The notes under the pieces were generated by a model. It did not search any database. It saw nothing but the letters and a program-made list of their open reading frames with translations, and was not told the origin of the DNA. Below, piece after piece: positions 1 to 62,586 of a stretch of 64,000 nucleotides of DNA; the stretch's first letter is position 1, and each line of letters opens with the position of its first letter. A program made the position numbers and the translations under genes. The DNA comes from an uncultured virus (IMG/VR IMGVR_UViG_3300028416_000010) (Duplodnaviria > Heunggongvirae > Uroviricota > Caudoviricetes): IMG/VR virus record IMGVR_UViG_3300028416_000010; one strand, 5' to 3'.

Positions 1-141
1 ATCTATAGGTAATGATTGCCCTTGCTTTAGTGCTTCAGCATAAGCCTCTGCAAATCTCCAAACACTTATATTTATTGTAGTGCCTTTTTCTTTCGGGTCT
101 TTAACTCCAAAAAAATCCGTATAAAATTCTTTTCCTGTCAT
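1..141 (-). CDS. Partial cassette ORF starting in attC loop (MTGKEFYTDFF...QGQSLPID)
   Basis: ATG at 141; frame stays open off the window edge through the left attC arm. Confidence 0.6.
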   Translation of the reverse strand, partial: MTGKEFYTDFFGVKDPKEKGTTINISVWRFAEAYAEALKQGQSLPID

Positions 142-193
142 AATTTATCTGTATTTAATCGGGCAATAACTACCCATAGATTTAACGTTATAT
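1..193 (+). mobile_element. attC-like site (left end cut off by window) ending a third cassette array
   Basis: ATCTATAGGTAATGATTGCCC (1-21) pairs with GGGCAATAACTACCCATAGAT (161-181), followed by TTAAC-GTTATAT (G at 187). Same architecture as the attC-like sites at 17-25 kb. Confidence 0.75.
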
Positions 194-347
194 TTTAATA
201 TAATGAGAAACTATTTAATCTATAATGTTAAAATGAGATTTTCATCATTTATTTCTTCATTAGAATCTTTTAATTTTTCAAAGAATATTTTGTTATATAA
301 CGATAAATTTAATTAATTATTACAAAAAAATAAATATTTTTTTATTA

Positions 348-15934: not shown

Positions 15935-16978
15935 TCATAATAATTTATATTCTGGTTTTAATAATTTCCATATATAATTCGAATAGTTTTTTCCATCATA
16001 CATTCTGAATAATATCGGTTGTAAGTGTTTGTCTTGTTTCTTAACCCATTCAGCATAAAACTTCTTCTCTGGTAAATCACCATCATAATTTTCGTATAAC
16101 ATATCAAACAACTTACCAGCATGTTCACTTATGGACATGAAACCATACTTTAATGATTTCTCATAGTCTCTTATTTGTGGGTAAAACTCATCTGGTACAC
16201 CATCAAAAACTTCTTCTATTGATTCACCATTTGATAATATCTCCCACACTGACTTAGTAGATATCATTGATATTATTCTATGAAGTCTTATATACTCTTC
16301 ACCTTTGATTTTCATTTTGTCACCATTGGAGAATCTAACAACAAAACCTTCTTCATTATCACCAACCATATCTTTCAAAAGGGTGAAGTCTTTTATACCA
16401 TCGTATTTCTTAACAACACTTAAACTTATGTTGGATATTAAGTTTTTAAATCTTATAGGTCCGTTGTGGATGTCTATCTCCTCACCAGACTCAGTATTTA
16501 TCATTCCCAATAATATAACGTCTTCAAATGAATATTTAACCACTATATGATTTTCATTATATATTATTTCAAATAGATAAGTATAATCTTTGTGTAATTT
16601 TTGGTATTCGTATTTGGATAATAATTCTAAACCTCTAACAGATTGTTCTGAAGTGAATGAACCACGAGTGGCGAATATCCATTCACCCTTGTAGTTAAAA
16701 AGTATTCCCAATGAACCATCCATTTTATCATAAACGCCAAAGTCTGAAGTTGGTGTGTGTTTACCCTCTTCCATATTGAAGAATTTTTTGAAAGGACGTG
16801 CTACTATATTACCTTCATCATCAGTTACCAACCCTCTACATTGTAATAGAGTTTCATCCCATAAACCTTCATATTGAACCTTATCTGAATAGTTCCATAT
16901 GGTTAATGGTAATGAAGGGTGTTTTTGACTAAACAATAAACCTTCTGATTCGTATTTATGTAATAATTTTAAATCCAT
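15935..16978 (-). CDS. T4 Rnl1-like RNA ligase
   Basis: Motif I KMDGS, plus RPFKKFFN, ATRGSF, LFEII, EGFVV, KIK. Confidence 0.9.
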   Translation of the reverse strand: MDLKLLHKYESEGLLFSQKHPSLPLTIWNYSDKVQYEGLWDETLLQCRGLVTDDEGNIVARPFKKFFNMEEGKHTPTSDFGVYDKMDGSLGILFNYKGEWIFATRGSFTSEQSVRGLELLSKYEYQKLHKDYTYLFEIIYNENHIVVKYSFEDVILLGMINTESGEEIDIHNGPIRFKNLISNISLSVVKKYDGIKDFTLLKDMVGDNEEGFVVRFSNGDKMKIKGEEYIRLHRIISMISTKSVWEILSNGESIEEVFDGVPDEFYPQIRDYEKSLKYGFMSISEHAGKLFDMLYENYDGDLPEKKFYAEWVKKQDKHLQPILFRMYDGKNYSNYIWKLLKPEYKLL

Positions 16979-16992
16979 ACCACAAATATAAC

Positions 16993-17026
16993 AAAAAAAG
17001 GTTAGATAACAAATATCTAACCTCTT
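16993..17026 (-). terminator. Intrinsic terminator downstream of cassette array 1
   Basis: AGGTTAGATA-N4-TATCTAACCT hairpin with adjacent A-run (T-tract on the minus strand). Confidence 0.7.
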
Positions 17027-17135
17027 AATTTTAAATTTTCTTTGTTCTATCTGAATAATTTAAATATGTAAACTTTTGTTCACAAATCTTTACAATTTTT
17101 TGATTTAGCATCCTATAACTATTTAATAATTAATA

Positions 17136-17166
17136 ACTTACAAAAAGGTGTTGATATATACTAGTT
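17136..17166 (+). other. attI-like primary recombination site, copy 1
   Basis: ACTTACAAAAAGGTGTTGATATATACTAGTT is identical to 62273-62303; identity ends exactly at the GTT of the first cassette. Confidence 0.75.
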
Positions 17167-17207
17167 GTAGTGCATTAAAACGACACCACAACAATATATA
17201 AAATCAA

Positions 17208-17366
17208 TTAATTATTACTATTTGCTTTTAAGAACATTATTGCAGTTTTGTAACTTTCAATCAATCTAAAGTAAGAGGCTTCTACAAAATCTTCTCTTGC
17301 TTTACTATGTTGTTTCTTTGCTTTTTTTAGTTGGTATTCCATCAACTTTATTGTTATCCAATCCAT
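17208..17366 (-). CDS. 52-aa ORF wholly inside an attC loop
   Basis: MDWITIKLMEYQLKK...FLKANSNN, between the arms of the first attC. Confidence 0.65.
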   Translation of the reverse strand: MDWITIKLMEYQLKKAKKQHSKAREDFVEASYFRLIESYKTAIMFLKANSNN

Positions 17367-17390
17367 AATTAACTGTTTTTATATTTAACG

Positions 17391-17675
17391 TTAGCAGCCA
17401 TTTAAGACCGCATCTACCAACGCTTGACGAGTATCAAAACAATCTTCGTCTTTTACCCAAAATTTGCAACCCATTTCACCACTTGTATGGTAAACTTCCA
17501 ATTCAATGTCGGTGTGTTCATATAGGTAATGTTTCTGACCTCTAATAGCTTCTACTTTGCCATTCATAATGTGTCGCCCATTTAAAAACCACACCTCTTG
17601 TCCGAAATTAAAACGGCTGCTAACAGCAGCTATGCCTAATTGCGGAGCTTCGTTGTAATCTGATACTTTTTCCAT
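17391..17675 (-). CDS. Cassette protein (starts in attC loop, stop in crossover GTTA)
   Basis: PQLGIAAVSS is the translated attC arm. Confidence 0.75.
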   Translation of the reverse strand: MEKVSDYNEAPQLGIAAVSSRFNFGQEVWFLNGRHIMNGKVEAIRGQKHYLYEHTDIELEVYHTSGEMGCKFWVKDEDCFDTRQALVDAVLNGC

Positions 17676-17744
17676 TTTATTATATTTTGTTGTTAATTAA
17701 AAATTTCGTTCTTTAAATCCGCAACTAAGCATAGCTGCAAACCG

Positions 17745-18032
17745 TTATGGTGCATACAGCTTCAACCTCTTAACTTGGTCAATCCCTTTTGCATTACAAT
17801 ACAAGGCAAAATTTCCTAAGTATTTATAACTTTCACTACTTATATCCATCGAACTACGTACATCGCCTAAGTTATCCCAGTGCTTTGCTACGTTCTGCAA
17901 TCCTAAAAACATACTTGCGTTCTTTGCAATCAAATAATTTTGCCTTTTTTCGCTACTAAGCAAGAAAGTACGCACCATAACAATGCGTATAATCCATTGC
18001 TTAAATTCTACTAATTTGTTAAGTATCTTCAT
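17745..18032 (-). CDS. Cassette protein (starts in attC loop, stop in crossover GTTA)
   Basis: QWIIRIVMVR is the translated attC arm. Confidence 0.7.
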   Translation of the reverse strand: MKILNKLVEFKQWIIRIVMVRTFLLSSEKRQNYLIAKNASMFLGLQNVAKHWDNLGDVRSSMDISSESYKYLGNFALYCNAKGIDQVKRLKLYAP

Positions 18033-18113
18033 TTTATAATCTTTTAGTTGTTATCCAAAGTCTGTGCTGTTAAACGCAACGTATCATACGCTCAACGTTA
18101 TAAAACATAAAAA

Positions 18114-18389
18114 TTATTTACACGGTTCGTTTTTTCTGCCACTACCTGTTTCAATCAAGTATGCCTTTTCGATTAACTTCAAATAAGATACTGGTTTGCC
18201 TCTATCAGTGTCACAAATAACTTTCTGTCTTTCTTCATTATAGTATCCTTCAGAAGTTAATCGAAATTCCTCACCATCGGGCATTCTAACTAAATCACCT
18301 TTTCTCCACGCAGATAATACTGGGTTATGTTCTATCCTATCCATAATTTTTACGTTTTTATAACAACAAATATAAGCAATTATTCTCAC
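18114..18389 (-). CDS. Cassette protein (start uncertain, possibly 18344)
   Basis: ORF in the cassette body; SH3-like 'KGDLVR' stretch. Confidence 0.65.
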   Translation of the reverse strand: MRIIAYICCYKNVKIMDRIEHNPVLSAWRKGDLVRMPDGEEFRLTSEGYYNEERQKVICDTDRGKPVSYLKLIEKAYLIETGSGRKNEPCK

Positions 18390-18473
18390 AATTCCAAATA
18401 AATGTTGTTTATTAATATTAAGTTCCGTTCTTCTAATTAAGTTTTCGTTAATAACTGCTTATATTTGCAACCG

Positions 18474-18614
18474 TTAGCAAACATCGTGTTTTAAGTTACA
18501 TTTGCTACATATCCAATACTCTTTTTTATCTGTTTCTTTTAGTTTGCCTAATCGGTACATATCAGATACTTTTTTTCTTTTATTGCACCAATCGCATTTC
18601 TTAGTCTTTGTCAT
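18474..18614 (-). CDS. 46-aa zinc-finger-like cassette protein
   Basis: CDWC...CSKC; stop in crossover GTTA. Confidence 0.65.
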   Translation of the reverse strand: MTKTKKCDWCNKRKKVSDMYRLGKLKETDKKEYWICSKCNLKHDVC

Positions 18615-18669
18615 AGTCACGTTTGCTAACATTATTTAAAAATCATTAAAACGCTTTTTACATTTAGCG

Positions 18670-18894
18670 TTAGCGGAAATGCCTTTTAAGAGCTTCATTC
18701 GTCTTTTCGGCTTTCTTGGAAAAATCATGGTCATATAATGCTTTATCTGTGCAATCGGCACATAATCCGTCATACATATCTCTATGAACTGTCCCGTCTT
18801 TTTTTAAGCAACCACTACATACTAAGGCACTATCCGCTAACAAGCGGTTAGCGTCATTGCCGTTTTCGTGGTCAATTGAAGTTTTGTGTTCCAT
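18670..18894 (-). CDS. Zinc-finger-like cassette protein (starts in attC loop)
   Basis: CSGC...CADC; NDANRLLAD is the translated attC arm. Confidence 0.7.
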   Translation of the reverse strand: MEHKTSIDHENGNDANRLLADSALVCSGCLKKDGTVHRDMYDGLCADCTDKALYDHDFSKKAEKTNEALKRHFR

Positions 18895-18971
18895 ATCAAA
18901 TTTATTTTAAAGTTAAAGTTTCGTGTTCCAAAGTCGGCAACGAACGCCAACCCTCAACCGTTATAAACAAA

Positions 18972-19157
18972 TTATACATATCCCGTTAATTCTCTAATGG
19001 CTTCATCTCTTTTTTTCTTTTCAGAAAAAGGTATTACATCGCCATCTAAATAAATACAATAAAAACCTTGTTCCTCGCCACTTTTCACTATTTTAACATT
19101 TGCCACATTAACATAAATAACACCGTCAATAGTTCCGCTTATCATTCTAAAATTCAT
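18972..19157 (-). CDS. Cassette protein
   Basis: 61-aa ORF filling the cassette body. Confidence 0.7.
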   Translation of the reverse strand: MNFRMISGTIDGVIYVNVANVKIVKSGEEQGFYCIYLDGDVIPFSEKKKRDEAIRELTGYV

Positions 19158-19301
19158 ATTTTCATCAGTTTATAACATTATTTAAAAATCATTAAAACGC
19201 TTTTTACACTCAACGTTATGTGTAAGTGTTCTGTTCATCGTTCTAATCAACATTTCGGTTGAAAATTTTAAAATAAAAATTCTACACACAAATTTAACAA
19301 A

Positions 19302-19823
19302 TTAATTTGAATAATCAAAATCATATTTTACTATAAGGTTTTTTGGTATAATCCCAAGATACGCAACAGAACCCCATATATCTAAACTTTCAATTATCTT
19401 TTCACTATCGGTTTCCGCTTTGTTCCAACCATATTTATTTAATATGTAATCATCATCCCAAGTTAATTTATCTAAATTTAATTTAGTAACATCAATCCAT
19501 AATCTCACTATTGGTTTGGTTTCATAGTTTTCTTCATTCTCATAATATTCATCCATCACATCCATTAGTGATTGTGGTAAATTCGCTTTATATAATGATT
19601 GTGACGTAGTTAAAAAAATACCTTCTGAAACATCTCTATAATAAGAATTTGGGTTTTTTCGTGGTATTAAACCCTCAATTTTAATATCATCTAAGTAATC
19701 AGTTAATGTATAATGAAAAAGATATTTCCCATCAATTAAATAGTTTTTAACATTATCATTTACATAGTTTTCATTCAAAAACTCTCGTATTGTGGTTTTA
19801 ATAAATTGTCTCAAATCTTTCAT
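19302..19823 (-). CDS. Cassette protein, possible ADP-ribosyltransferase/Tpt1-like fold
   Basis: 'LFHYT...IKIEGLIP...GIFLT' pattern; 'IKTTIREFLNE' leader; upstream TATTTATA motif. Confidence 0.45.
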   Translation of the reverse strand: MKDLRQFIKTTIREFLNENYVNDNVKNYLIDGKYLFHYTLTDYLDDIKIEGLIPRKNPNSYYRDVSEGIFLTTSQSLYKANLPQSLMDVMDEYYENEENYETKPIVRLWIDVTKLNLDKLTWDDDYILNKYGWNKAETDSEKIIESLDIWGSVAYLGIIPKNLIVKYDFDYSN

Positions 19824-20069
19824 CTTTTATTTTATATATAAATATTAACAATTAAAATTTCCACCGTTCTTTTTCTTTTAAAACTTTTGTTCAGTTCTCC
19901 GAATAAACATACTACCTTAATTAACCACACCTACACATAACAAGGTGTATATGTAATGTGAGGTTCAGTGTTATGTTAAAGTTCATCATTCTAATCAACA
20001 TTTGTGGTTAAGTGGAGTTTAGTGTTTCAAATCTCACACTACATATACACCCAACCGTTGTAAGTAATA

Positions 20070-20228
20070 TTATTTTTTAGGGTTTCTTGTTTTCCAAAAC
20101 TCTATTGCTTCTCTATGTGTAAAAAACTCGTGAAGTTCATAGAACCTTTCTCCGTTTTCTACATAAGCAAAATCCCATACTTCCCACTTATTTGTTTCTT
20201 TGTTTTTTACTGGTCTTTGACAATCCAT
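20070..20228 (-). CDS. 52-aa cassette protein
   Basis: MDCQRPVKNKETNKWEVWDF...RNPKK fills the cassette body. Confidence 0.65.
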   Translation of the reverse strand: MDCQRPVKNKETNKWEVWDFAYVENGERFYELHEFFTHREAIEFWKTRNPKK

Positions 20229-20350
20229 AATCTATTCATTTAGTTAAAAAATAATACATACTCACAACAACGTGTAAAATTCATTAAAACGAAATCTTAC
20301 ACAAACCGTTATAGCCCATTGTAGAAAACGGCAGACAAAACATTAAAAAT

Positions 20351-20959
20351 ATGGAGTTAGAAAAAAAACTCGACAAAGTATTAAATATTCTATATGACGA
20401 ATCCTTGTTGACGTTAAAAAGAATACCAACAACAGACATTGCTGTATTCGGAAAACGTAGATATGGACTTGATATGTCTGATACTGAAATATTATTAATA
20501 ATGGATACCTTACAAGATGAAGGATATGTTATTATGAATAAAGGCGATTTTTCAGGTTCAAATATGAAAATGCCAACATATTCCTTAACAAGTAAGGGGA
20601 TACGACTTAAACAAAATGGTGGTTTTGCATTTAAAAGACATGTTGAATGGTGGACAAATTTCTTAATTATTTCCGCTTCCATAGTGACTATTATTGTTGG
20701 TTTAGCGACAAGTATTGATTTTTATTTTAAATATTTATCCTCTCCAAGCGAAATAAATAATAGCACTGAAAACACTCAGACAATAACAGAACCAACCCCA
20801 AAAGCCGATTATAATATTGAATTTAGCGATACAGAAAAGACTAACAATGATAAAAATGGCAATACCAATACCAATCAAAACAAGATGGATACTATTACCG
20901 ACATTGACACCATTACTGACTCTATCAAGAAAACGGCTATCAGACCGACTAATAAATGA
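20351..20959 (+). CDS. Canonically oriented cassette gene: wHTH-like N-terminus, one TM, Thr/Asn-rich tail
   Basis: Only + strand gene in the array; followed by the attC at 21035-21165. Confidence 0.8.
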   Translation: MELEKKLDKVLNILYDESLLTLKRIPTTDIAVFGKRRYGLDMSDTEILLIMDTLQDEGYVIMNKGDFSGSNMKMPTYSLTSKGIRLKQNGGFAFKRHVEWWTNFLIISASIVTIIVGLATSIDFYFKYLSSPSEINNSTENTQTITEPTPKADYNIEFSDTEKTNNDKNGNTNTNQNKMDTITDIDTITDSIKKTAIRPTNK

Positions 20960-21171
20960 TTTTTTTCTTTTAAATAATGACATATTTTTAATTTTAACTA
21001 ATTGATTAATAATACAAAATACAAGAACAACGGACTATAACAGCGTATATGAGCAATAGCGGTTGTAGTGGTAAATTGAAGTTTAGTGTTTCTAATAAAG
21101 TTCGGTACTATCCGAAAGTTTATGTTTCTAAATCCGCTACTGCTCATATACGCAAAACGTTAGGCTTAATA

Positions 21172-21705
21172 CTACCACTCACTCCAATCAGCTATTGTTT
21201 TTTTGCCTTTAGAAATCCTTATAATGTTAGGCTCTAAAGTCTTTAAGGTTTCTTCTGTATCTGCATCTACATCTAGCCTGTATACTTCGTCACTATCACC
21301 ACCAATAGAAGCGTAAACCCTTTCTCCATCTTCGGTTATTCCTGCAAAACCAAAGCTATATTTGTAGTAACTGCTAAACTTTAGTTTAACATTACCATAC
21401 TTTTCGTAAATCTGTTCTTTTGTCATTTTATTGTCTTTTTTTGTTAATGTTCCGTACTAAGCCTAACACTGTACATAAGGCATTAAAACGCCCTCATGTA
21501 CTCAACGTTATGTGTAATGCTAGGGTTTTTCTAACCTCTTGTTTCTATTATATAGATTTTTCTTAATTGTGTTACTATCTTCCGTACCATTAGCTGATAT
21601 ATGATTGGATATTAAAATACCTTCCATTCTTTTAATTTGGTCAACTTCGTTTGGTATATGACCAATCCGCAGGTTATCCCATTTTTCAAGTTTACACTCT
21701 TTCAT
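21172..21705 (-). CDS. Two single-gene cassette proteins (21172-21426, 21520-21705)
   Basis: Each ORF fills one cassette body. Confidence 0.7.
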
Positions 21706-21843
21706 TTCAATTTATTTTTATCGTTAACAATCCGCACTACACACAATAACGTATATACCTCATTTTCGTACCTCAAACGGTGCATATACAAACCGTTATG
21801 GTGCAATTAAAAAAGCACATAACACAGAATATAAATAATAAAA

Positions 21844-22083
21844 TTAACTAATCACTTTTTTATCAGTCCAATTTTTTTCGCCTCTAAGAATACTTAACAT
21901 ATTCAACATATCGTCTTTATCATAAGATTCGTGGCAACCTTGTATATTAAATAAATAATCTTGCGACCACCAAGTCCAAAACAAAAAACGCTTTCGTTTC
22001 TCTATGATGTATTTTTTATTATTTCCGCCCACTGCATTATTAATAGATTCTATCAATCTATATTTTTGATTATCTTTCATCAT
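21844..22083 (-). CDS. 79-aa ORF wholly inside an attC loop
   Basis: Bounded by arms AATATAAATAATAAAATTAAC and GTTAATTTTACTATTCATATATT. Confidence 0.7.
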   Translation of the reverse strand: MMKDNQKYRLIESINNAVGGNNKKYIIEKRKRFLFWTWWSQDYLFNIQGCHESYDKDDMLNMLSILRGEKNWTDKKVIS

Positions 22084-22167
22084 CCGTTAATTTTACTATT
22101 CATATATTTTACGTTATAACCAATACTACATTATACGAACTAATTAACATTTTGTCACAAAAACTTT

Positions 22168-22467
22168 TTAATCAACGTGTTCACATCTTTCAAAAGTAAT
22201 TTCATTAAAATCTAAATTAATTTGGCATTTATGTAATTTCCATATATGGTTATTATTACTTGGAATTATGAAACCACTATTAAATAATTCATATTTTCCA
22301 TCAAACTTATTACCATCAACAACAATAAATTTAAATGGTTTCCATTTAGATTCACCAGTAAATTGTTTTGTCACATCCTCAATTATTAAAGTTGGGTTTT
22401 CATTAAATTGTATTTGGATAATAATATCACCCAAAATTAATTTACCGTTTTTTAATTCATTTATCAT
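22168..22467 (-). CDS. Cassette protein
   Basis: 99-aa ORF in the cassette body. Confidence 0.7.
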   Translation of the reverse strand: MINELKNGKLILGDIIIQIQFNENPTLIIEDVTKQFTGESKWKPFKFIVVDGNKFDGKYELFNSGFIIPSNNNHIWKLHKCQINLDFNEITFERCEHVD

Positions 22468-22839
22468 AATCTCTAATTTTATTTATAATTATTATTAAAA
22501 GTTTTTGTTTAGTATTTCAATCAAGTTTTTTCTTAAATTCACCGTACTGGTTATAACACCATATATAGTTTATAAGCCTGTTTAACATACTTTTTTAATT
22601 AGTAAGTTTTTCGTATGGCTTACAAAACCATATACTCAACGTTATACACAATATTTTTTAACAACCCATTAATTTGAGTTATCATTCTGGTTTTTAACCT
22701 CATCATCAATCATTTTATTAAGGTTTTCTTTGACCCAATCCATATTATCTGTGGAAACATTCATTTGACTTAGTTGGTTAAGTAATTCTGTTTTACTTTT
22801 TTCCATTTCTTCTTTAGTTTGTTTTTTCTTTTCCATATT

Positions 22840-23244
22840 CTATTTTATTTTTATTTCTTTACTTTTGGTATAATTTAATTTTTCACCTATTTTTATTAAT
22901 TCACCAATAATCATTGAATTTAATTTCCCATTTAACATCGCAAACGGTTCGTCACTTTTCTTAAAATTAAAACCATTATATTTAATAATTTTAGATGTTA
23001 AATGGTATATTTCATGAGTTAATGTATCAACACAAACACCGTCATCGGTTATTTTTACTAAGACATATACCAATTTTTCTTTTGGAATAAACTCACCAAT
23101 AACAATCCCATCAAAATCAATTTCACTTATTTTATAAAGTTTTTTCTTATTATGTTTTTTCTTTATCTTGTTGATTGGCTTACTTAAATCATAATCAAAA
23201 TAAATTTTAACTTTAATATCATATAATGGTATTTCTATTTTCAT
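22840..23244 (-). CDS. HExxH metallopeptidase-like cassette protein
   Basis: LTHEIYH plus a downstream E. The cassette also carries a 55-aa ORF (22669-22836) and a TATATTTG motif. Confidence 0.55.
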   Translation of the reverse strand: MKIEIPLYDIKVKIYFDYDLSKPINKIKKKHNKKKLYKISEIDFDGIVIGEFIPKEKLVYVLVKITDDGVCVDTLTHEIYHLTSKIIKYNGFNFKKSDEPFAMLNGKLNSMIIGELIKIGEKLNYTKSKEIKIK

Positions 23245-23347
23245 TTACAAATATACTAATTTATTTTTAATTTATCAATCCATTTCACAAAAATACAGTG
23301 TATAACAAATGATAAACAACATTAAAACGATTGTTTATCATCAGACG

Positions 23348-23590
23348 TTATGAGCAATGAAATTTATCATTAACCCAAATTTTAAACTTTTCTTTAAGTT
23401 CTTCCTTGCATTGCTCAGGTTGGTAATACCCGCTTATCTCACCATTAAACGTCTCATCACTTTCTAACCATCCATTATAAAAAGTTTCTGCGAGTAATGC
23501 CATTAATTTCACTTCACTGCTCATAACATCAGATATATGTAATTTTTTATCTGTGTTATTATCTTCTGTACTTTTTTTATTATTATCCAT
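23348..23590 (-). CDS. Cassette protein (starts in attC loop, stop in crossover GTTA)
   Basis: KKLHISDVMS is the translated attC arm. Confidence 0.75.
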   Translation of the reverse strand: MDNNKKSTEDNNTDKKLHISDVMSSEVKLMALLAETFYNGWLESDETFNGEISGYYQPEQCKEELKEKFKIWVNDKFHCS

Positions 23591-23674
23591 ATTATTTACG
23601 TTTTGTGTTTTGGTTTAAGAAAAACTACATATATCTGTAGCCGTTGTATGCAATTAAAAAATACATACAACACA

Positions 23675-23818
23675 TTATATAGTTAATTTTTTAACTTCCC
23701 TTTCTACTACTTTTATAGCTTCAATAACTTTATTATCTATAACTTTAGGTAAGTTACCTCTATCAAATAGCCACTCTCTATGTGCTTTTAATATAACCAT
23801 TGCTTCATATAATCTCAT
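23675..23818 (-). CDS. 47-aa ORF inside an attC loop
   Basis: MRLYEAMVILKAHREW...VKKLTI, ending in the left arm. Confidence 0.65.
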   Translation of the reverse strand: MRLYEAMVILKAHREWLFDRGNLPKVIDNKVIEAIKVVEREVKKLTI

Positions 23819-24147
23819 AATTTATATATTTTAATACGTTAAAAATCTAACCATATAACCCTACGTTATAGGTAATGCTCTTTAATTATATCCATAGCAC
23901 TCCATATTTTTTTTACTTCTGGTAATTCTCTGAACTCTTCAACTGTAAGCTCTTCTTTATCTACCATCAACTGCATCATACTCCAACTTGTATTCACCTG
24001 CAAAGTGTGGCTCAATGGGTATGCGTATAACAGTACCTAAAAAACAGTTGGTGTTATCTCCTACTTTAAGTTCGTTCCTTTCTTCTTGCTTTGTCATATC
24101 ATAAAATTTAGTGGTTGTAAATCCAACCGTTTCTTAGCTGCATCCCG

Positions 24148-24303
24148 TTAGCTGCAATAAAAAATAAGAGCTTCAAAATCACTAAAATTTATTACACCTT
24201 GCTTAACCCATCGGTACAGCATTTTTAGTTTTTCTTTTTCACTTTTCAATTCTTGTAATGTATCTACTTTTTCTTGGTATTTATATTCGTCTAGTTGTTT
24301 CAT
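24148..24303 (-). CDS. 51-aa cassette protein
   Basis: MKQLDEY...ALIFYCS; stop in crossover GTTA. Confidence 0.65.
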   Translation of the reverse strand: MKQLDEYKYQEKVDTLQELKSEKEKLKMLYRWVKQGVINFSDFEALIFYCS

Positions 24304-24436
24304 AATCTTATTTTTTAAAGTTCACTTCGTCAGCTAACAACGTGTATATTGCATAGCCTATCGGCATACGCACCATACACAATGCGTTATGTGTAAGTGT
24401 TCTATTCATAATTCTAATCAACATTTCGTTTGAAAA

Positions 24437-24847
24437 TTAAAAACCATAATGAAACCATTTATCATCATTTTGTAATTGCTCTTTTAATTGCTTGTTTATT
24501 TTCCATACTATATTTTGAGCAATAACAGAAGTTATCCCTTTAACATCAAAATCATAAGCAATTTGACCAATTGAATATACAAACATTCTCAATAATTCTC
24601 TTGGTATGTCAAATGTTATATCCATATCATTTGTGTAATTTTTACTAGAAAAGTTTATTTCATTACTTATTGGTCGCATAACTAAGTGATGTAAGTCTTC
24701 AAACCAATCCTTACTCAATCTTTCACAACCTTTTCTCATCATTGATTCAACCCAAGTACTCGATGAATTCCATTCTTCTCTTGTTAGAGAGATTTTAACT
24801 ACTTTTTCAAAGTAACTAATATTTGCAATTTTTTGTTTATAATCCAT
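24437..24847 (-). CDS. Cassette protein
   Basis: 136-aa ORF in a cassette whose attC is partly deleted. Confidence 0.7.
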   Translation of the reverse strand: MDYKQKIANISYFEKVVKISLTREEWNSSSTWVESMMRKGCERLSKDWFEDLHHLVMRPISNEINFSSKNYTNDMDITFDIPRELLRMFVYSIGQIAYDFDVKGITSVIAQNIVWKINKQLKEQLQNDDKWFHYGF

Positions 24848-24927
24848 ATGTTTTTATTTAATTTTTTTGTTCAGTTATCCGAATTAAGTTTCCACCTTCT
24901 CATACACCCATACGTTATGTGCAATAA

Positions 24928-25248
24928 TTAGCAAAACTGATAGTTTAATTCTGGCTGTAATTCCTTTATCATAATTCTCTCATTTGCCCTCGCTATTTCT
25001 TTAGTATCAAACTCCATTATAAGCACCTTGCTAAATTGTTTTGGTTTATGTTGCAACATTCGATGATACAAACTACCTGTATATCCTATGTACTTTATTT
25101 CATCATCATATACCAAAGCGTAGTTAAAATATCTCTCTCCACACTTTTTCAATTTTGTGGTTATTTGCTTTTTGCTAATTACAGTACATAACAAAGGCTC
25201 ATATTGCATAACCTTTTTTATCTCTTTTATTGATTTTTCTGGAGTCAT
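24928..25248 (-). CDS. GIY-YIG nuclease-domain cassette protein (starts in attC loop)
   Basis: FNY...KYIGYT...RMLQH...E...PELN. Confidence 0.75.
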   Translation of the reverse strand: MTPEKSIKEIKKVMQYEPLLCTVISKKQITTKLKKCGERYFNYALVYDDEIKYIGYTGSLYHRMLQHKPKQFSKVLIMEFDTKEIARANERIMIKELQPELNYQFC

Positions 25249-25678
25249 ATAGTTTTGTATTTCAATTAAATATTGTATGTAATTACCAGTTACGCAACAT
25301 AGCCAAACCGTTATCTGTAAGTGTTACGTTCATCATTCTAATTAACATTTCGGTTGGAAATTTTTAAAAAGTTATTTTTTTATAATCTCTAAATATGGCA
25401 TTGGTTTTTTCATTTTCGTAAATTTATATTAATTTAATTCATAACCATCAACAAAATAAAACTTTGGATACTTAATCGTTTTTCCATCAAAATCAAACCA
25501 ATACCACCCATCATATTCTTTTTGTGTTAAGTAACTCCAACCAGTCTTTAAATAACTTGTTTGGTGAGTTAAAATAAAGGTAACCCATTTTTGTTTATTA
25601 TTAACGTTTTCTTTTGTTTTTTTCTCGTTTGGGAATACTAACCCCATTATTTTTTTACTAACTTTACCCATCTTTATT

Positions 25679-26821
25679 TTAATTTAAAATTACATCAATA
25701 ATTTTATTCGTTATATTTCTAAAATACTCTTCATCATCACCCACTTTAGTTACCATAGCTGCGGTACCAATTCTTATACCTGATGTCTCCCAAACACCTC
25801 TAGGGTCATCTGGTATACTATTTTTATTTACAACTATATTATATTCTGATTCCAATTTGTCAGCAACTTCAGCACCTGACTTATCACCAGTATGAATTAA
25901 TATAATATGTGAATCAGTACCATCTGTTGTGATTTTAATTTCGTTTTCTTTAAGAATATCACACATATATTTCGACATCTTTATCACATTTTGTGAATAT
26001 TGAACAAAATCTGATTGTAGAGCCTCATAATAAGCCTGTGTTTTACCCGCAACTTGATTCATTAATGGTCCACCTTGTGTACCTGGAAAAACACCACTAT
26101 TTATTTTTTTACTATATTCCTCGTTATTCCAAAGAATCATACCACCTCTAGCACCTCTTAATGTTTTGTGTGTGGTAGATGTTACAAAATCAGCATAAGG
26201 TAAAGGTGAATCATATACTTTACCAGCAATTAACCCACTATAATGAGCCATATCAACCAATAGATAAGCTCCAACTGAATCAGCTATTTCTCTAAACCTT
26301 TTAAAATCTATTTGTCTTGGATAGGCAGAAGCTCCAGCAATAATTAATTTAGGTTTAACTTCTTTTGCCTTTTCCTCTATTTGATTATAATCCAACCAAC
26401 CATTAGCATCCACACCATAAAAATGGTTATCAAACCATTTACCACTGATATTGGCTGGTGAACCATGTGATAAATGTCCTCCTGATGATAAATCCATCCC
26501 CAAAATAACATCATTTGGCTTTAAGAATGCTTTAAAGATTGCTAGATTGGCATTAGCACCACTATGTGGTTGTATATTGGCGAAGTTACAATTATATAAT
26601 TTAGTAACTAACTCAATCCCATAATTCTCCAGTTCATCATAATGTTCACAACCATTATAATATCTTTTATTTGGATAACCTTCAGCGTATTTGTTAGTAA
26701 ACTCTGAACCACAATAATTCATAACTTCTCTGGATGTGAAGTTTTCTGAAGCTATAAAGTTATGCTCCATTTCTTGTCTACCCATTTCTTTGGATAGGAT
26801 TTGTCTTAATTTATTTTCCAT
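25679..26821 (-). CDS. glyA: Serine hydroxymethyltransferase
   Basis: IASEN, KYAEGYP, QPHSG, GGHLSHG, TTHKTLRG, PGTQGGP, SGIRIGT. Confidence 0.97.
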   Translation of the reverse strand: MENKLRQILSKEMGRQEMEHNFIASENFTSREVMNYCGSEFTNKYAEGYPNKRYYNGCEHYDELENYGIELVTKLYNCNFANIQPHSGANANLAIFKAFLKPNDVILGMDLSSGGHLSHGSPANISGKWFDNHFYGVDANGWLDYNQIEEKAKEVKPKLIIAGASAYPRQIDFKRFREIADSVGAYLLVDMAHYSGLIAGKVYDSPLPYADFVTSTTHKTLRGARGGMILWNNEEYSKKINSGVFPGTQGGPLMNQVAGKTQAYYEALQSDFVQYSQNVIKMSKYMCDILKENEIKITTDGTDSHIILIHTGDKSGAEVADKLESEYNIVVNKNSIPDDPRGVWETSGIRIGTAAMVTKVGDDEEYFRNITNKIIDVILN

Positions 26822-37413: not shown

Positions 37414-39952
37414 TTAGAGAACAGGAAAACTTAATTCGTCTATACTCCCTTCTACACTTCCCCCATCATTCCCCTCATCATCTCTTAATGGTATAATATG
37501 GGTTCCATCAGTAAAAAAGATTATGATTGGTCTACTATACCAACCAGACTTTTCTGCTTCCTCAGAAGTCATGTATCTAACGTTTTTGATTGTTTTACCT
37601 ACTAATGCTTTTGCTCTATTGTTCCAAAAGTTTTCTAAATCTTCGTATCTCATAATTTATTAATCTTTAATATTTACAACATAATATAGTAAACAAGTTT
37701 TAAATTAATCAAAAGTTTTTTTGTTTTTTTCTATATGTGTATATAATTTAGGAATAATCTTTAAATCTTTTTAACTCTTCTATAAAGACTTTTTTTAGTT
37801 CGGGGGACCATATACCTTGTGAACCTAATGACATATTGAAAATTTTTATTACATCTTGTTCTGTGAATGTTTTTTCTTCTAACTCTGTTATATATCTAAG
37901 TACACTAATTGGTGTAGTTGCATAATTTTCTTCAGCGTTATTTTTGTAATATTCTAAATCTTTTGTTTGTTGTTCTGTGTTATCCATATTAATGTTTTTA
38001 ATGTTGTTATTATCATGTAGTAAAGATAACATTTTTTAATCAAAAAGTTTGTAAATTATTTTATTTTTTTTCTGGAGGGATTTTTAAGTGTGTATATTTT
38101 TTTGTGTAGAATCAATGTGCTGCTGCAGCCTTAAAAATGCAGCTGCAGCTTTTTGTTGGGGGGGGCAAATTAGATTTGTGGGTATACAATAATTTTTCAT
38201 TATTTTCCGAAAAGTTTTTATTTATTTTTCGGAAAATATATTTTTTTTATTGTATATCTGTGTTTATTGTTCTGGAAATTTTAATGAAGGCAATCGAAGC
38301 GTCAACTGTAGAAAAAAGAAAGGGGGGACAAAATCCCCCCAATCTTATAAAATTAAAACACAAACATATAATACAAATATAATAATTTTAAAATTAAAGT
38401 CAATAAAAAAGGGATACAATTTTGTGCACCCCCCTTTTATTATTCGTAAATAATTAAATCTTATTTTAGTTTATCATAATTTATGATTATTTCACTTTGA
38501 TTTTTAAATTCCATTTTCATTTTATCTTGACCATATATTAAATGTAGCTCCATTTGTATTGTGTTATCTTTTGATTTTCTCTTGTCTACTAACTCATAAA
38601 AACCCACTCCAGAAAAACCTTCTGAAAACCATTCTCCTGTTCCAACAAATATTAATTGATTTCCTTTGAAGTAATATAAAGAGTCAATGTAAAATGCTTC
38701 GTCAACACTACCACTTAACCAAGTTTCTATATATACTTTTTCTTTTTTGTTTTCCATTTTATATTTCCCGGGTTCTATTTGAGAAAAAGAATAGTTAACA
38801 ATTATGAATAAAGCAAATAAGTTTAATATAATATTTTTCATCACTAATCTAGTTTAACTTGAAATTCTTCTTTGATTGGTTCTTTTGTGATTAAGTATCC
38901 TATACGATTTACTAAATGCATACCTGATACATAATACATATCAATAGTAGGTTCTCCAAAATCATCTTCTACTTCTTCATCTCCTTCAATAATTGTAATA
39001 ACTCTATTTTCTTTAGCCATTTGTTGAACTACCAATAATTCATCTCCATAAGTTTCAAATAGACATCCATCAAAAGAAGCGTTATCTTCTAAGTGATTTT
39101 CAATAAGTTCATACTTTTCATAAAATTGCTCTTCTGTTAAATGTGTCATAAGTTCTATTTTATATTTTTTAATAAATCTTGTTTAGAAATAAAGTTTATT
39201 GGAGGATAATGATTTAAGCATCTTTTAATTTCAATTTCATGCAACGCAGCTTCTATATGTAGTTTAGCAAATTCTTTCATTGCCTCAATAAAACTTTCTT
39301 CATCTACTAAATATTCTGCATCTCCTTCTTCATGTTGAATAAGGTCTGCATACTCTTTAAGAAAATCTTTTGCTGTTGGTAACTCTTTCATATTATAAAT
39401 CTTTTAATGTTATATTATAGTATAGTAATCTTTTTTTAAAGTAATCAAAAAATTGTATTGTTTTTTTCTGGGGGGCTATTCTAATTCTTCTTTGAGTTTA
39501 TCTATTTCATCCCTTATAATAACAGCACTTTCAAAATCTTCATTACTTATAGCATCTTCTAAATCAATCTCAAGCTCTTCTATTTTATAAGTTTTATGTG
39601 ATTTCAAAATTTCACTTTTAGGTTTTATTTTACATTCAACTTCTAAACCTGCTGATGCTTTATGATGTTCGATGGAACCAGAAATTATAAAACCCCAACT
39701 ACTCAACACTTCTTTTAGTTCTGAAATTCCCATTGGCCCTTTATAGTACAATTCAGATTTATCAACTTCTTCTATACCTATTTTTTGTAATTGTGGATAT
39801 AGTTCTGTTATCCAATTATCAATTAAAAATTTCCCTTTTAAATCCCATGCTGTTATTAATATTGAATAACCTTCTAATTCAAAATAATAATATTTATCTT
39901 TATCCTTTTCTGTTAACTCTTGGATGTTTAAAATAAATTCGTTTTGTTTCAT
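37414..39952 (-). CDS. Small hypothetical proteins (37414-37653, 37748-~37987, 38461-38844 secreted, 38844-39149, 39155-39391, 39476-39952 with C-terminal UVR-like helix)
   Basis: ORF track; 'LEDAISNEDFESAVIIRDEI' resembles the UvrB/UvrC motif. Confidence 0.65.
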
Positions 39953-40018
39953 ATTGTATTTACATTAAAAAAATAATCCCCCACAAATTTACGTTTTTTA
40001 TTGGGGGGGTGCAAATTT

Positions 40019-42514
40019 TTATTTTTTAATTTTTGAAAGTTCTAAATCTATCATTTTCATTAATTCTCCCCTCATAAATTCTAAACCACTTCCTGTTTCT
40101 CCTACTTTATTATAATCTCTAAAAGTCCATTCGTAATTACTTTGAACTTCATTGAACATAAAACTAATTATTGGATATTTAACTTTTAATTCTTGTTCAG
40201 CTTTTTCAATGATTTCCATTTTTAAATAACCACTTAAATCTTCTAAGTTTGTTTTATCCATATATTGTTTTGCTAACTCTAAAATAGCTCTCCCTTTAAA
40301 TATTGAAGAAAAGTCTGTCGTTTCTTCAAATTGGCCCAATACAGGAACTTTAAATTTAAAAACATCTAACCCATTTAATAGAAGGTATTTTTTATACATA
40401 TTATTTTTAAAATATTTTTCGTATGTATAAGAATCTTTAGTGAAAGTGTTAATTTCTTTTATTTCTTCCATTTGAGTTTGTTTAACTAATAAATTTACAA
40501 AATCTTCATTTTTTAACAAATCTTCAAATGCAGCTTTAAGGCCTATAATTATATTTTTATCTTTTTTAACAAGTTCTAAATCTTTTTCTTTTACAGAAAT
40601 AAATTTATATTTGTATGCTTGTAACATTCTACTTAATTCAAATTGACTTATTAGAATTGAGTTACCTTCTTCATCTTTACTGACTTCAAATGTGTTTAAA
40701 GTTGAATCTGATGTAAAGTTATTTAGTTTGAAGCTAACTTTATCTAAATCTTTTAATTCTGCATGTTCATTAAGTGGGACTAAAACTACTTTTGTATTTT
40801 CATCTACATTAAAATCAAAATCTGTAATTTGTTTTTCTTCAACATTAAAAGTCATTTTAAGTTTTAATACATTACCTATTTGCTCTCTATATGTTTTAGC
40901 TTGAAATTTCCTTGCAAAAATTGTTTTTAAATTTTTGTCTTTTTTTGTAGCAACATAATTTGAACTTCTTTGTACTTTTGTTTTTTCTACTTCTTCATAA
41001 TTAATAACATTTATATTAATTTCTTTTAACAATTTAATAAAGTTATTATCTTTTAAGTCTCCCTCAAAGCCAAATAAGAAAATAATACCATTTAAACCTT
41101 TTTCTTCTATTTCTTTTTGTAGTGTTAAATTTTTATTATAATTACTTTTTTCATTAATTCTTTTAAATACTATTAAATTATTTTTTAATAATTCTTCATT
41201 TGGTAATTCACTATTAATTAAATTCTTTTTAGTAAAATAAAATCTATCTCCATTTAATATTTGGTAAAAATCTAATGAGCTTAAAGATAGACTTTTTAAG
41301 TTTGAATATGTTTTTACTTCTGGGTAGTGGTTTTTTATTAATGTTTTAGCGTTATAATTTCTATAAAAATCTTTAAATATAAATTCAACTTTTGAATGTT
41401 TACCAATACTCTCCCCATTATAACTAAAAGAGTTAAAGTACATAATTTTTTCTAATTCAGTTGTTTTACTTTTAAACTCTTCTAAAATGTTTGTTTCTAT
41501 AAGGTTAACTAACTTTTCAAATTTTGAAATTATTAATTTTATATTTTCTTCTGTATATTCAATATCTTCTCTACTTGCTGACAAAGTAAGTTCTCCAGTT
41601 TCAAAGCAAAGTAATATATTTCTTTTAACCGTTTTATAAGAGTGTCTTGAAATCATTGAATAAAGAAAAGAATTTTCTAATTTTCTTCTTGAATCTTCAC
41701 TAATTCTCCCCAATTTTGTAGTACTTAATGAATAAGGAATCCCATCAATTTCTAAAAACATTTCATCATAAGCTACATCGAATAAAGAAGTTTGGTAATC
41801 TCCATATATAACTCTAAAATCTTTTTCATTCAACAAATCTTTAATGTCTAAGTTTTGTTTTTCATTTTCAAACATTATTGTAGGTTGTACTTCCCATAAA
41901 GAAGTTGCTTTTCTACTTTCTTCTAAAAATTCGTATTTATCTTCTTCTTTAATAGGGACAATTATTTCAGTACCTGTTTCTTCTGTTGTTTCCATAGAAG
42001 AAACTAATATTAATTGTGAAACTTCTTGTCCTCCTTCATTAGAAATTAGTGCCTGATAGACATTGTGTAACCTAACTCCATTTTCTTCTGAAATAGTTGA
42101 AATTAAAAATTCATTAGTATAAGCAAATGGGGTTTTTGCACCAATACCGAATCCTCCTGTTTGATTATTTGAATCTCTTTTAGTTGAGCTACCGTATTTA
42201 AGAAAAACATTATCAATTCTTGAAGGGCTAATACCTACTCCACTATCTTTAAAAGATATAGAGGCTCCTTCATCTAGTAAACTGTTTGAACTAGAAATAT
42301 TTATTGTAATAGGTAAGTTGTTTTTACCAGCTTCTCTATTTGCATCTCTTGAATTTGAAGCAACCTCTCTACAAACTGCAGCAACTTTATTGGAGTATAA
42401 TTTATCTCTCAAAATGCTAACAATCATTTGATTGCTTGTATCTATTGTAAATTCTTTTTTAGAATTTAAGTTTAAAGTTTCTGTTTTTTCGCCTGTCAAA
42501 TTTTGCAATTTCAT
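40019..42514 (-). CDS. rIIA-like protein with N-terminal GHKL/HSP90-type ATPase
   Basis: LYSNK, REVASNSRDA, DSGVG, SSTKRDSN, GGFGIGAKTPFAY, GT; SASRE motif. Confidence 0.85.
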   Translation of the reverse strand: MKLQNLTGEKTETLNLNSKKEFTIDTSNQMIVSILRDKLYSNKVAAVCREVASNSRDANREAGKNNLPITINISSSNSLLDEGASISFKDSGVGISPSRIDNVFLKYGSSTKRDSNNQTGGFGIGAKTPFAYTNEFLISTISEENGVRLHNVYQALISNEGGQEVSQLILVSSMETTEETGTEIIVPIKEEDKYEFLEESRKATSLWEVQPTIMFENEKQNLDIKDLLNEKDFRVIYGDYQTSLFDVAYDEMFLEIDGIPYSLSTTKLGRISEDSRRKLENSFLYSMISRHSYKTVKRNILLCFETGELTLSASREDIEYTEENIKLIISKFEKLVNLIETNILEEFKSKTTELEKIMYFNSFSYNGESIGKHSKVEFIFKDFYRNYNAKTLIKNHYPEVKTYSNLKSLSLSSLDFYQILNGDRFYFTKKNLINSELPNEELLKNNLIVFKRINEKSNYNKNLTLQKEIEEKGLNGIIFLFGFEGDLKDNNFIKLLKEININVINYEEVEKTKVQRSSNYVATKKDKNLKTIFARKFQAKTYREQIGNVLKLKMTFNVEEKQITDFDFNVDENTKVVLVPLNEHAELKDLDKVSFKLNNFTSDSTLNTFEVSKDEEGNSILISQFELSRMLQAYKYKFISVKEKDLELVKKDKNIIIGLKAAFEDLLKNEDFVNLLVKQTQMEEIKEINTFTKDSYTYEKYFKNNMYKKYLLLNGLDVFKFKVPVLGQFEETTDFSSIFKGRAILELAKQYMDKTNLEDLSGYLKMEIIEKAEQELKVKYPIISFMFNEVQSNYEWTFRDYNKVGETGSGLEFMRGELMKMIDLELSKIKK

Positions 42515-42594
42515 ATTTCTTATTTTTAATGTTAATTATGTTATATTATAGTAATAGTCTTTTAAAGTAATCAAAAAATAAATCAATTTTTTTA

Positions 42595-43368
42595 TTATTT
42601 TTTAAAAATATCTTCAAAAATATCATAAGATATTTCAAAAAGTTTTTCATTTTTAATTTCAACAATTCCTTTAATGTTTTTAATTTCTTCTTTTTTGTAA
42701 ACTTTAAATCTTGAAACATAAATTTGATTTTTCATAGTAAAAGAAATTATATCAAATGGATTAATTAAAGCATAAAATTTAATTTCATCAATACTTTGTT
42801 TTGATATTAAACTTAAAGAAAAAGAAGTGTTATTATTTTTTACTCTTATAATATCTCCATTTTCTAACTTTGAAATTCTTATAGGTTCTCCAATTACTTT
42901 TTTTGAGATTTCTTCTTCTTCTTTTAATGTTATAGGCAATAATAAATTTCCTTGTTTAGTTAATCCTATTTCTTTAACTTCTTTAAATAAATTATAATAA
43001 CCTTCTGAAACATCTATTGAAGAAAAGAATATTTTTTTTGATAATTTGTATAGTGGCTTAACATCTTCCCCTGTTGACATTAATTCTATACCTTTTCTAA
43101 TTAGTAATTTAGAGAAGTTATTTGGTTTATTATGAAAACAATCTATTACATTTCCATTTTCTATTTTAAAGTATTTTTTAATATAATCAAAAAGTTTATC
43201 TTCAAAGTTATCAAATAGATTTAATATTTCTTGTGTATTATTATCAATAATATATTTATGTATGATATCAAAAAATTCAGGACTTTTTTCTTTTGAAATT
43301 GTTTGTTTTTTACCATTGACAAACACCATAATTTTCCCTCCCAGCTTAATTGCACTTACATTATTCAT
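42595..43368 (-). CDS. Divergent rIIB-like protein
   Basis: Adjacent to rIIA; 'GLTKQGNLL' and 'INPFDII...VSRFKV' echo rIIB motifs. Confidence 0.5.
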   Translation of the reverse strand: MNNVSAIKLGGKIMVFVNGKKQTISKEKSPEFFDIIHKYIIDNNTQEILNLFDNFEDKLFDYIKKYFKIENGNVIDCFHNKPNNFSKLLIRKGIELMSTGEDVKPLYKLSKKIFFSSIDVSEGYYNLFKEVKEIGLTKQGNLLLPITLKEEEEISKKVIGEPIRISKLENGDIIRVKNNNTSFSLSLISKQSIDEIKFYALINPFDIISFTMKNQIYVSRFKVYKKEEIKNIKGIVEIKNEKLFEISYDIFEDIFKK

Positions 43369-43414
43369 AATAACTTTTTTTGATTACACTATATTATAGT
43401 AAAAACTTTTTAAA

Positions 43415-44449: not shown

Positions 44450-44784
44450 ATCTTTTTTTTGTATAATATAGTAAACTAATTTCAATGTAATCAAAAAAAC
44501 TTAAAAATTTTTTGGATGGTGAAGGTTTTTCTGGGGGGGTGTTTTTATGTTTATATGATATACAATATTATTAACGTATTTTCCGAAAAAATATTACAAA
44601 ATTTTCTGAAAATATTTTCTTTTTATTGTATACCATTCCCCCCCAATTTTAACAATTCCATCCATCTTCACCAGCAGCTGCAAACCTGCCGTAACTGTTA
44701 CAATTAATTTATTCCCCCAGGAAAAACAAAAAAGCGAACCTAAAAATAGATTCGCTCAATTGTGTAATTTAAATAAAGATAATC

Positions 44785-62272: not shown

Positions 62273-62303
62273 ACTTACAAAAAGGTGTTGATATATACTA
62301 GTT
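62273..62303 (+). other. attI-like primary recombination site, copy 2
   Basis: 31/31 identity to 17136-17166; precedes the first cassette of array 2. Confidence 0.75.
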
Positions 62304-62517: not shown

Positions 62518-62586
62518 CTTTATGTCTTTTAATTAAGTTCAGTAAAAGCAACGGTTCATACACAAAACGTTATAAAACATTAAACT

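Follow-up and report, generated by a model that had tools for sequence, protein, structure and literature searches.

The 64,000-nt stretch of DNA analyzed here, referred to below as the window, comes from an uncultured virus of the class Caudoviricetes (IMG/VR record IMGVR_UViG_3300028416_000010) and carries two rows of integron-type attC hairpins at positions 17164-25319 and 62301-63166, together with the end of a third row at 1-196. All attC sites lie on the plus strand and, with the exceptions noted below, the cassette genes lie on the minus strand, as do almost all genes of the window, whose G+C content is 27%. Other recognizable genes include those for a T4-type RNA ligase, serine hydroxymethyltransferase, a sigma factor, and an intein-bearing open reading frame (ORF). 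The public sequencing runs containing this stretch are seawater metagenomes, and the window is read here as part of a large marine phage, whose host, judging from where the attC site family is found, would belong to the Bacteroidota. We consider it likely that this region serves a phage integron-like system as its store of cassettes, which are inverted and self-starting.

On the plus strand each element reads ...TAAC, a short spacer, an arm, a loop, an arm, a 5-nt spacer, and GTTA..., and the sites show the R''-L''...L'-R' order, the RYYYAAC and GTTRRRY cores, and the single-strand fold by which attC sites are recognized. Two size classes are present, long sites with a loop of 60-75 nt and short sites with the loop CATTAAAACG. 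Two covariance models, R1 (short) and R2 (long), trained on the window's own sites, located 20 distinct sites, all on the plus strand and confined to 17615-25319 and 62451-63166; the one minus-strand match was the mirror of a plus-strand match (22.7 versus 102.3 bits). Additional crossovers at 17164, 17390, 22113, 23865, 24914, 62301, and 187 were found by eye. The covariance models replaced two hairpin scanners of our own, one too strict (6 sites) and the other too noisy (136 matches versus 97-129 in Markov controls), and a window-wide search for R'/R'' 10-mers was dropped as symmetric and noisy. A search of Rfam detected no family in the window. In the cassettes 23643-23865, 17164-17390, and 21795-22113, R' and R'' are nearly adjacent and the whole ORF (47-79 aa) lies in the loop between L'' and L'. 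The features are listed in Table 1.

Table 1. Rows, sites, junctions, and genes of the window, by position (crossovers are given as the position of the G)
Feature	Position	Strand	Remarks
attC, last of a further row left of the window	1-196	+	Read by eye, missed by the covariance models; L'' 1-21, loop ~140 nt, L' 161-183, R' GTTAT at 187
T4-type RNA ligase gene	15935-16978
Terminator-like hairpin	16996-17026	-	13 pairs and a T run; at the row's downstream end, directly after the remnant and before the ligase gene
Recombinase remnant	17031-17111	-	26 codons, then stop; tblastn with the 266-aa protein of locus L302: residues 1-23, 78% identity, E 1e-6
attI-like junction, row 1	17136-17164	+	Conserved sequence ending at the crossover; aligned with junctions beside intact recombinase genes
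Row 1	17164-25319	+	21 cassettes; crossovers 17164, 17390, 17744, 18097, 18473, 18669, 18960, 19215, 20057, 20308, 21159, 21507, 21795, 22113, 22641, 23347, 23643, 23865, 24147, 24386, 24914, 25310
Cassette gene, 94 aa	17391-17675	-	Loop start, through L'' and R''; stop at crossover TAA
Long attC, 139 nt	17615-17753	+	R2, 102.3 bits; fold
Cassette gene, 95 aa	17745-18032	-	Loop ATG, second ATG in R''; stop at crossover TAA
Long attC	17972-18106	+	R2, 102.7 bits
Long attC	18355-18482	+	R2; first ATG of its gene (18344) just outside R''
Cassette gene, 52 aa	18474-18632	-	First ATG at R''/L'' border; stop at crossover TAA
Short attC, loop CATTAAAACG	18621-18678	+	R1, 61.6 bits
Cassette gene, 74 aa	18670-18894	-	Loop ATG; stop at crossover TAA
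Long attC	18832-18969	+	R2, 90.9 bits
Short attC	19167-19224	+	R1, 67.9 bits
Long attC	19932-20066	+	R2; its gene 19302-19823 begins ~110 nt past R''
Short attC	20259-20317	+	R1
Cassette gene, 202 aa	20351-20959	+	Sole gene in classical orientation; weak winged-helix match under cut-off
Long attC	21032-21168	+	R2, 111.1 bits
Short attC	21458-21516	+	R1
Short/mid attC	21738-21804	+	R1
Mid attC, 103 nt	22548-22650	+	R2
Short attC	23297-23356	+	R1; identical L''-loop-L' in L033 and other phages
Cassette gene, 80 aa	23348-23590	-	Loop ATG, second ATG in R''; stop at crossover TAA
Long attC	23518-23652	+	R2
46-aa ORF	23957-24097	-	Loop ATG; uncertain call
Long attC	24022-24156	+	R2
Cassette gene, 51 aa	24148-24303	-	Stop at crossover TAA
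Short/mid attC	24329-24395	+	R1
Cassette gene, 106 aa	24928-25248	-	Loop ATG; weak GIY-YIG/endonuclease matches under cut-offs
Long attC, last of row 1	25183-25319	+	R2
Serine hydroxymethyltransferase gene	25679-26821
attI-like junction, row 2	62272-62301	+	Identical 29-mer at 62272-62300; no recombinase gene adjoining
Row 2	62301-63166	+	Crossovers 62301, 62569, 62952, 63157
Cassette gene, 71 aa	62302-62517	-	Loop ATG is the only in-frame ATG; stop at crossover TAA
Row 2 attC sites	62451-62578, 62895-62961, 63102-63166	+	Covariance models

Each R'' is matched to the R' of its own cassette. In 16 of the 24 cassettes, at least 9 of the 10 bases of the R'' 10-mer match the reverse complement of this R', and over the six non-core bases of the 20 cassettes with a placed R'' the agreement is 5.1 of 6 with the own R', 2.55 with the adjacent R', and 2.14 with the R' of other cassettes; the observed sum of R''/R' matches was not attained in any of 10,000 permutations. 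Such complementarity between R'' and the R' that bounds the cassette on its other side is characteristic of integrons, and the bacterial rows described below display the same R''/R' chain. When a site is joined to the R' of its own cassette, the state expected in an excised circle, the fold consists of an R stem of 10 bp, an internal loop that is asymmetric (1-3 versus 5 nt), and a long L stem. In 19 of 21 cases stability is higher for the excised than for the array form, and in all 21 excised forms the bottom strand, which is the gene-sense strand, has a more stable fold than the top strand. Among 69 sites from 16 other phage loci, none of them from the window, 94.8% of the alignment cells were paired compared with 23-45% in slid-partner controls, and 283 cells were changed on both sides compared with 84.7 in shuffles (0 of 500 as high); the alignment was fitted to the model, which favors the structure.

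The preliminary description of this DNA had the cassette genes running antisense to the classical orientation, and this is borne out by the longest ORF, which is on the minus strand in 20 of 21 cassettes of row 1 and in two of three of row 2, the third cassette of row 2 having no ORF of at least 45 aa. The integron arrangement, in which cassette genes are sense-oriented and expressed from a promoter at the integrase end, is not that of the window or of the phage rows. Because the order R', gene, R'' is symmetric, the inversion of the genes hinges on which end of the unit is the crossover. With the short-site pattern, the site family turned up in over 129 viral and over 123 genome stretches, most of the listed genome records carrying a Bacteroidota label, and the long-site model found 116 sites in 75 viral loci and 72 sites in 78 bacterial loci. 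In the bacterial rows (Tenacibaculum, Bacteroidales bacterium CF, and Psychroflexus) the longest open frame is co-oriented with the site in 18 of 19 intervals, whereas in nine phage rows, read with the same model, it is antisense to the site in 55 of 62 intervals. The asymmetric spacers, of 1-3 nt following R'' and 5 nt preceding R', and the strand call of the model agree with those of the bacterial rows, and on this sequence evidence the inverted polarity is no artifact of reading near-palindromic sites.

Long rows of this site family with sense genes were seen in the Tenacibaculum chromosome (L215), Bacteroidales bacterium CF (L235/L237), and Psychroflexus (L209), and such Bacteroidota rows may be missed by tools demanding the IntI-specific segment. 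A 5.5-kb contig binned as Methanolobus (L243) has eleven sites, and the genes are antisense in 8 of its 10 intervals; it has site and gene-start segments in common with the window and looks like a phage fragment put in an archaeal bin.

The ORFs at 17675, 18032, 18894, 23590, 24097, 25248, and 62517 start within the attC loop, 51-66 nt before R'', and by our reading of site 1-196 the ORF 1-141 does so as well. The leaders PQLGIAAVSS, NDANRLLAD, and KKLHISDVMS are present as first reported, and QSLPID follows from bases 1-20. An in-frame loop ATG continuous with the cassette gene is found in 7 of the 11 long sites of the window; the gene call at 24097, a 46-aa frame overlapping another frame, is uncertain. 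In a survey of starts covering the window and nine phage rows, with ORFs of at least 40 codons through R'', such an ORF was present at 31 of 49 long sites and had a loop ATG in 26 of the 31, and no loop ATGs were found at mid-size (7 with an ORF through R'') or short (3) sites. The gene frame remains open upstream through R'' and L'' for a median of ~24 codons, the two other frames reaching ~9 (Mann-Whitney p = 4e-8), and it is open for at least 17 codons in 28 of 38 gene frames versus 21 of 76 other frames (Fisher p = 6e-6).

For the gene 17391-17675, eight database homologues (54-95% identity) all carry a leader. Their invariant residues are A16, S20, and then F22 to H35, the run of invariants starting right after R''. 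After the loop ATG, codon 37 is the first ATG to follow, and the stretch from the loop ATG to the invariant residues contains no ATG, GTG, or TTG; translation of this gene must therefore start upstream of R''. Open frames and residue conservation thus lend support to translation from the loop. The leaders also have a common pattern, L-N/G-I-x-x-V-S/M (e.g., QLGIAAVSS, KLGISDVMC, NLNISDVSS, and QLNIGAVMC), in agreement with the recurrent peptide footprint that had been proposed.

At the other end of the cassette, the ORFs ending at 17391, 17745, 18474, 18670, 23348, 24148, and 62302 all use the TAA opposite GTTA, exactly as described before. They make up 7 of the window's cassettes, of which 23 have a minus-strand ORF of at least 40 aa and were counted; overall the crossover supplies the stop in 14 of 85 genes, and a further 47 of the 85 stop within 30 nt of the crossover TAA. 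The crossover stop is a form of compaction with a built-in backstop and no rule. The earlier proposal that the recombination site doubles as initiation region, coding sequence, and stop therefore appears to hold for the long sites, with their open frames and loop ATGs, and fails for the starts at short and mid-size sites and for most stops. A ~60-nt conserved element containing a small CAAC...GTTG hairpin stands straight after the crossover at 19215-19275, 24386-24445, and 25310-25370, at the 3' end of three minus-strand genes, and part of it recurs in the loop of site 19932-20066.

In related phages the rows are accompanied by a tyrosine recombinase. A PF00589 recombinase adjoins the row in 3 of 5 large phage contigs, and tblastn found the recombinase beside the row in 11 phage loci. 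In all 11 the recombinase and a conserved junction stand at the end upstream of the first R', the recombinase on the strand opposite to the sites and pointing away from the row in the manner of a classical integron; the junction lies ~55 nt from the recombinase start and ends at G/TT, the slash marking the crossover. L079 and L111 are homologous across the recombinase gene, with the homology ending at ...ATA/GTTAT, and the same junction occurs twice in the window. The exact 24-mer of the junction had no match in viral contigs. Among 31 window ORFs of at least 140 aa there was no PF00589 match, and tblastn detected only the remnant, which aligns with intact recombinase genes and starts 56 nt from the junction. 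With no more than 26 codons of the recombinase gene left after deletion, the window rows would now be passive stores.

The phage recombinase is 266 aa long and matches PF00589 at 122-130 bits. Its best family is NF040815 (195.4 and 184.2 bits, under the cut-off of 220), the XerC and XerD models score 146-161 bits (cut-offs 330-335), and the integron integrase model TIGR02249 scores 146-161 bits in two stretches (cut-off 265), so that neither the full-length Xer nor the integron-integrase models reach their cut-offs. The enzyme aligns over its full length with XerA (4a8e, 141.7 bits), whereas the alignment with IntI4 (2a3v) is limited to residues 18-172 and 214-262 and sets 41 residues opposite 89 of IntI4, a gap that we take, from the IntI4 structure, to cover the integron-specific segment. 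The phage recombinase thus appears to be without the segment that defines integron integrases. Among its best 120 listed relatives (at least 77% identity) nearly all are 266 aa long, and the named ones are called XerD-type recombinases. Bacterial relatives beside rows have 38-48% identity; in Bacteroidales bacterium CF, a 292-aa relative lies at the upstream end of the row.

In the cassette common to L043 and L104 the homology ends at GTTA, and in the cassettes common to L001 and L033 and to the window and L045 the gene is kept and the downstream site differs. Metagenome contigs diverge from the window at 17392 and 18096; joints with sides of 21-32 letters in contigs were not used. Whole sites and 5' leaders recur before unrelated genes. 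In runs X7 and X9 the gene at 18097-18366 is flanked on either side by different sites, and the breaks fall at 18096 (the crossover) and at 18358 and 18366 (the R''/L'' border). The cassette 24386-24914 has 86% identity over 532 nt with L045 positions 806-1337, where L045 has a full long site and the window the L' half only, which suggests an internal deletion in the window site. A megablast search of the row against phage records gave a sole match, a 107-base site in LR756500.1.

According to the model that we propose, a cassette unit extends on the plus strand from one G/TT crossover to the next and contains one small minus-strand gene and one site in the order R'', L'', loop, L', R', the site lying upstream of its gene because the gene is antisense to it. 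At long sites the loop would carry an A-rich leader and the start codon, and translation would pass through the L'' and R'' arms into the gene, leaving the N-terminal footprint L-N-I-x-x-V-S/M; many genes reach the cassette's opposite end, at which a TAA is built in as the complement of GTTA. Since the recombinase points away from the row, the cassette genes have the same direction as the recombinase and the rest of the phage genome. The phage recombinase, or a host relative, would move cassettes by exchange at G/TT of the folded strand, and only cassettes with a gene co-directional with phage transcription might persist; these would have to supply their own start signals, for which the loop would be the only free part of the site. 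In this scheme the sites and the rules of their pairing, the polarity of the genes, the open frames, the spread of the family, and the neighborhood of the recombinase are established, and the strand exchange, the start codon used, and the reason for the inversion are what we infer. We also incline slightly to the broader proposal that large phages of Bacteroidota run an integron lineage of their own, with a compact Xer-like recombinase, a junction, and swappable inside-out cassettes in which the hairpin serves as 5' leader, start, and first dozen codons, the cassettes of host chromosomes being the ordinary way round.

A number of observations weigh against this interpretation and feed alternatives to it. 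Exchange is not confined to G/TT, because breaks also occur at the R''/L'' border and at a start codon: contigs leave the window at 18358 and 18366 (border) and at 19826 and 19827 (start codon), and L083 and L111 have a gene and R'' in common but different L parts. Since the arrangement R', gene, R'' is formally symmetric, the border breaks could mean that the sites are read backwards and that the true crossover lies at the R'' end of ordinary gene-then-attC units. Four results make this very unlikely: the spacer asymmetry and strand call are as in the bacterial rows, with their 18 of 19 co-oriented intervals; all 11 loci have the recombinase and conserved junction on the R' side; in both rows G/TT is where the conserved 29-mer stops; and genes in common carry different downstream sites. 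Taken together, the breakpoints show genes, sites, and leaders to be shuffled as separate modules, and homologous recombination between repeated sites probably contributes to the shuffling and may do much of it. Were it to act with no site-specific enzyme at all, the hairpins could be expression signals (leaders, terminators, or processing stem-loops of the kind found in T4-type phages), a view that fits the recurrence of entire sites with their 5' leaders ahead of unrelated genes, the better folding of the gene-sense strand and hence of the mRNA, and the lack of a recombinase both in the window and in three related complete genomes, the huge phages G008 and G009 as well as LR756500.1 having site rows but no PF00589 match. 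We find it improbable nonetheless, as an RNA signal would not need an R'' that matches the distal R' of its own cassette (p < 1e-4), the site family forms bacterial chromosome rows with genes facing the other way, and a tyrosine recombinase adjoins the row in 11 loci with constant geometry.

It is likewise rather unlikely, if slightly less so, that the rows are real and the loop ATGs unused, translation starting at or after R'' and the leaders being an ORF-calling artifact in an AT-rich open frame. ORFs 18032 and 23590 indeed have an ATG within R'' (GTT-ATG) that is an equally good start, the genes behind mid-size and short sites start downstream, and the database homologues were called with the same kind of software. 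Against these points stand the excess of open gene frames upstream, the invariant residues F22 to H35 of 17391-17675, which precede any start codon other than the loop ATG, and the gene 62302-62517, which has no other in-frame ATG. Also weighing against the main interpretation are the 18 of 49 long sites without an ORF through R'' and the outcome of the promoter scans. The strict Bacteroidota-type promoter consensus occurs in one of the 11 long window sites (18367-18398, minus strand, in site 18355-18482), in no other site of the window, and is not enriched in the window (13 matches versus 7.5 expected), and the conserved loop motif is present also in bacterial sites of the family whose genes face the opposite way.

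Two candidate explanations of the loops were discarded. A promoter in every loop is unsupported in the window, and the conserved loop motif is ruled out as a phage promoter by its presence in the bacterial sites. A sigma-70-type scan of the window likewise gave no enrichment (58 versus 55.2). Apart from the loops, a Bacteroidota-type promoter consensus at 16983-17013 precedes the RNA ligase gene.

The rows resemble classical integrons (class 1; Vibrio chromosomal) in the R'', L'', L', R' order with AAC/GTT cores, the complementarity to the own R', the single small gene per cassette, the more stable bottom strand, and the tyrosine recombinase that stands beside a conserved junction at the first cassette and reads away from the row. 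They differ in that the phage genes are antisense to the site, the loop holds the start codon, the arms are coding, the L boxes have a conserved GTATAT-like core, and the enzyme is 266 aa long and without the integrase-defining segment. No common junction promoter can drive the phage cassette genes, because they are antisense to the site. The phage enzyme is like XerA of Pyrococcus (PDB 4a8e) in its end-to-end alignment and unlike Xer recombinases in that it is located next to rows of cassettes, where those act at a chromosome dif site. Promoter-early stem-loops (PeSLs) of T4-type phages are repeated stem-loops with expression signals between small accessory genes and have been linked to modular shuffling; the window likewise has stem-loops among small phage genes. 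PeSLs are not known to have cassette-specific R'/R'' pairing, AAC/GTT cores, or a dedicated recombinase.

Inverted cassettes in chromosomal integrons are a minority class within a sense-oriented row, whereas the phage rows are inverted as a rule (55 of 62 intervals) and have the start within the site. In both, the gene is independent of the common promoter of the integron; inverted cassettes with their own promoter include toxin-antitoxin cassettes (see PMC13108822). With 20 model-detected sites and a recombinase remnant only, the window itself corresponds to a CALIN, a cluster of attC sites without an integron integrase, i.e., at least two attC sites with no integrase nearby. Seventeen CALINs in phages, each with at least two predicted attC sites, and a few integrons were reported by Qi et al. 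(2023; PMC9892861), with cassettes in the typical direction or divergent sites in the portion of the article consulted. The same portion agrees with our findings in describing attC clusters of virulent phages that have no integrase, including one reported from a Flavobacteriia phage (Polaribacter P12002L), and differs in containing no inverted-gene rule, coding loops, or phage-specific short recombinase. In Bacteroidetes, the text consulted on IntegronFinder 2.0 (PMC9024848) gives a complete integron for Salinibacter only. Our literature searches, whose coverage stopped short of subscription journals, found no published description of the inverted-cassette layout. What appears to be new is an integron variant with phage-borne inverted, self-starting cassettes, a short Xer-like enzyme in relatives, and an enzyme-less remnant in the window.

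If this interpretation is correct, a single stretch of DNA is under two constraints, folded-site pairing and N-terminal coding, and provides a natural test bed for their interplay. Integron-type gene capture would extend to lytic-type large phages with a different enzyme of their own, and a large pool of small phage genes without known family would move as units. The N-terminal motif of many small phage proteins would be the footprint of a site and not a functional domain. Integron finders requiring the IntI-specific segment and sense genes would miss or misread such rows, and one recombination grammar would serve two separate gene pools, of host and phage, told apart by strand.

In line with a pool of genes without known family, none of the 24 cassette proteins reached the Pfam cut-off, and three had weak matches in PHROGs. 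Up to 0.91 of sampled words from the window were found in metatranscriptome libraries, and contigs covered 30 of 30 and 29 of 30 bins. Contig depth was higher at 17.0-18.8 kb in two RNA libraries, which is no proof of transcription as such libraries may contain DNA; the runs were available as contigs only, from which strand, transcript ends, and expression level cannot be read. Row 2 is surrounded by three copies (61925-62300, 63167-63500, and 63870-64000) of a ~350-nt non-coding repeat that contains a G-run and the motif 'ttttccgaaaatttt' and matches no Rfam family. The region 39000-47000 of the window had no megablast match among phage records; within it, on the minus strand at 44785-46590, lies a 601-aa ORF with Hint and homing-endonuclease domains, representing an intein within a phage gene.

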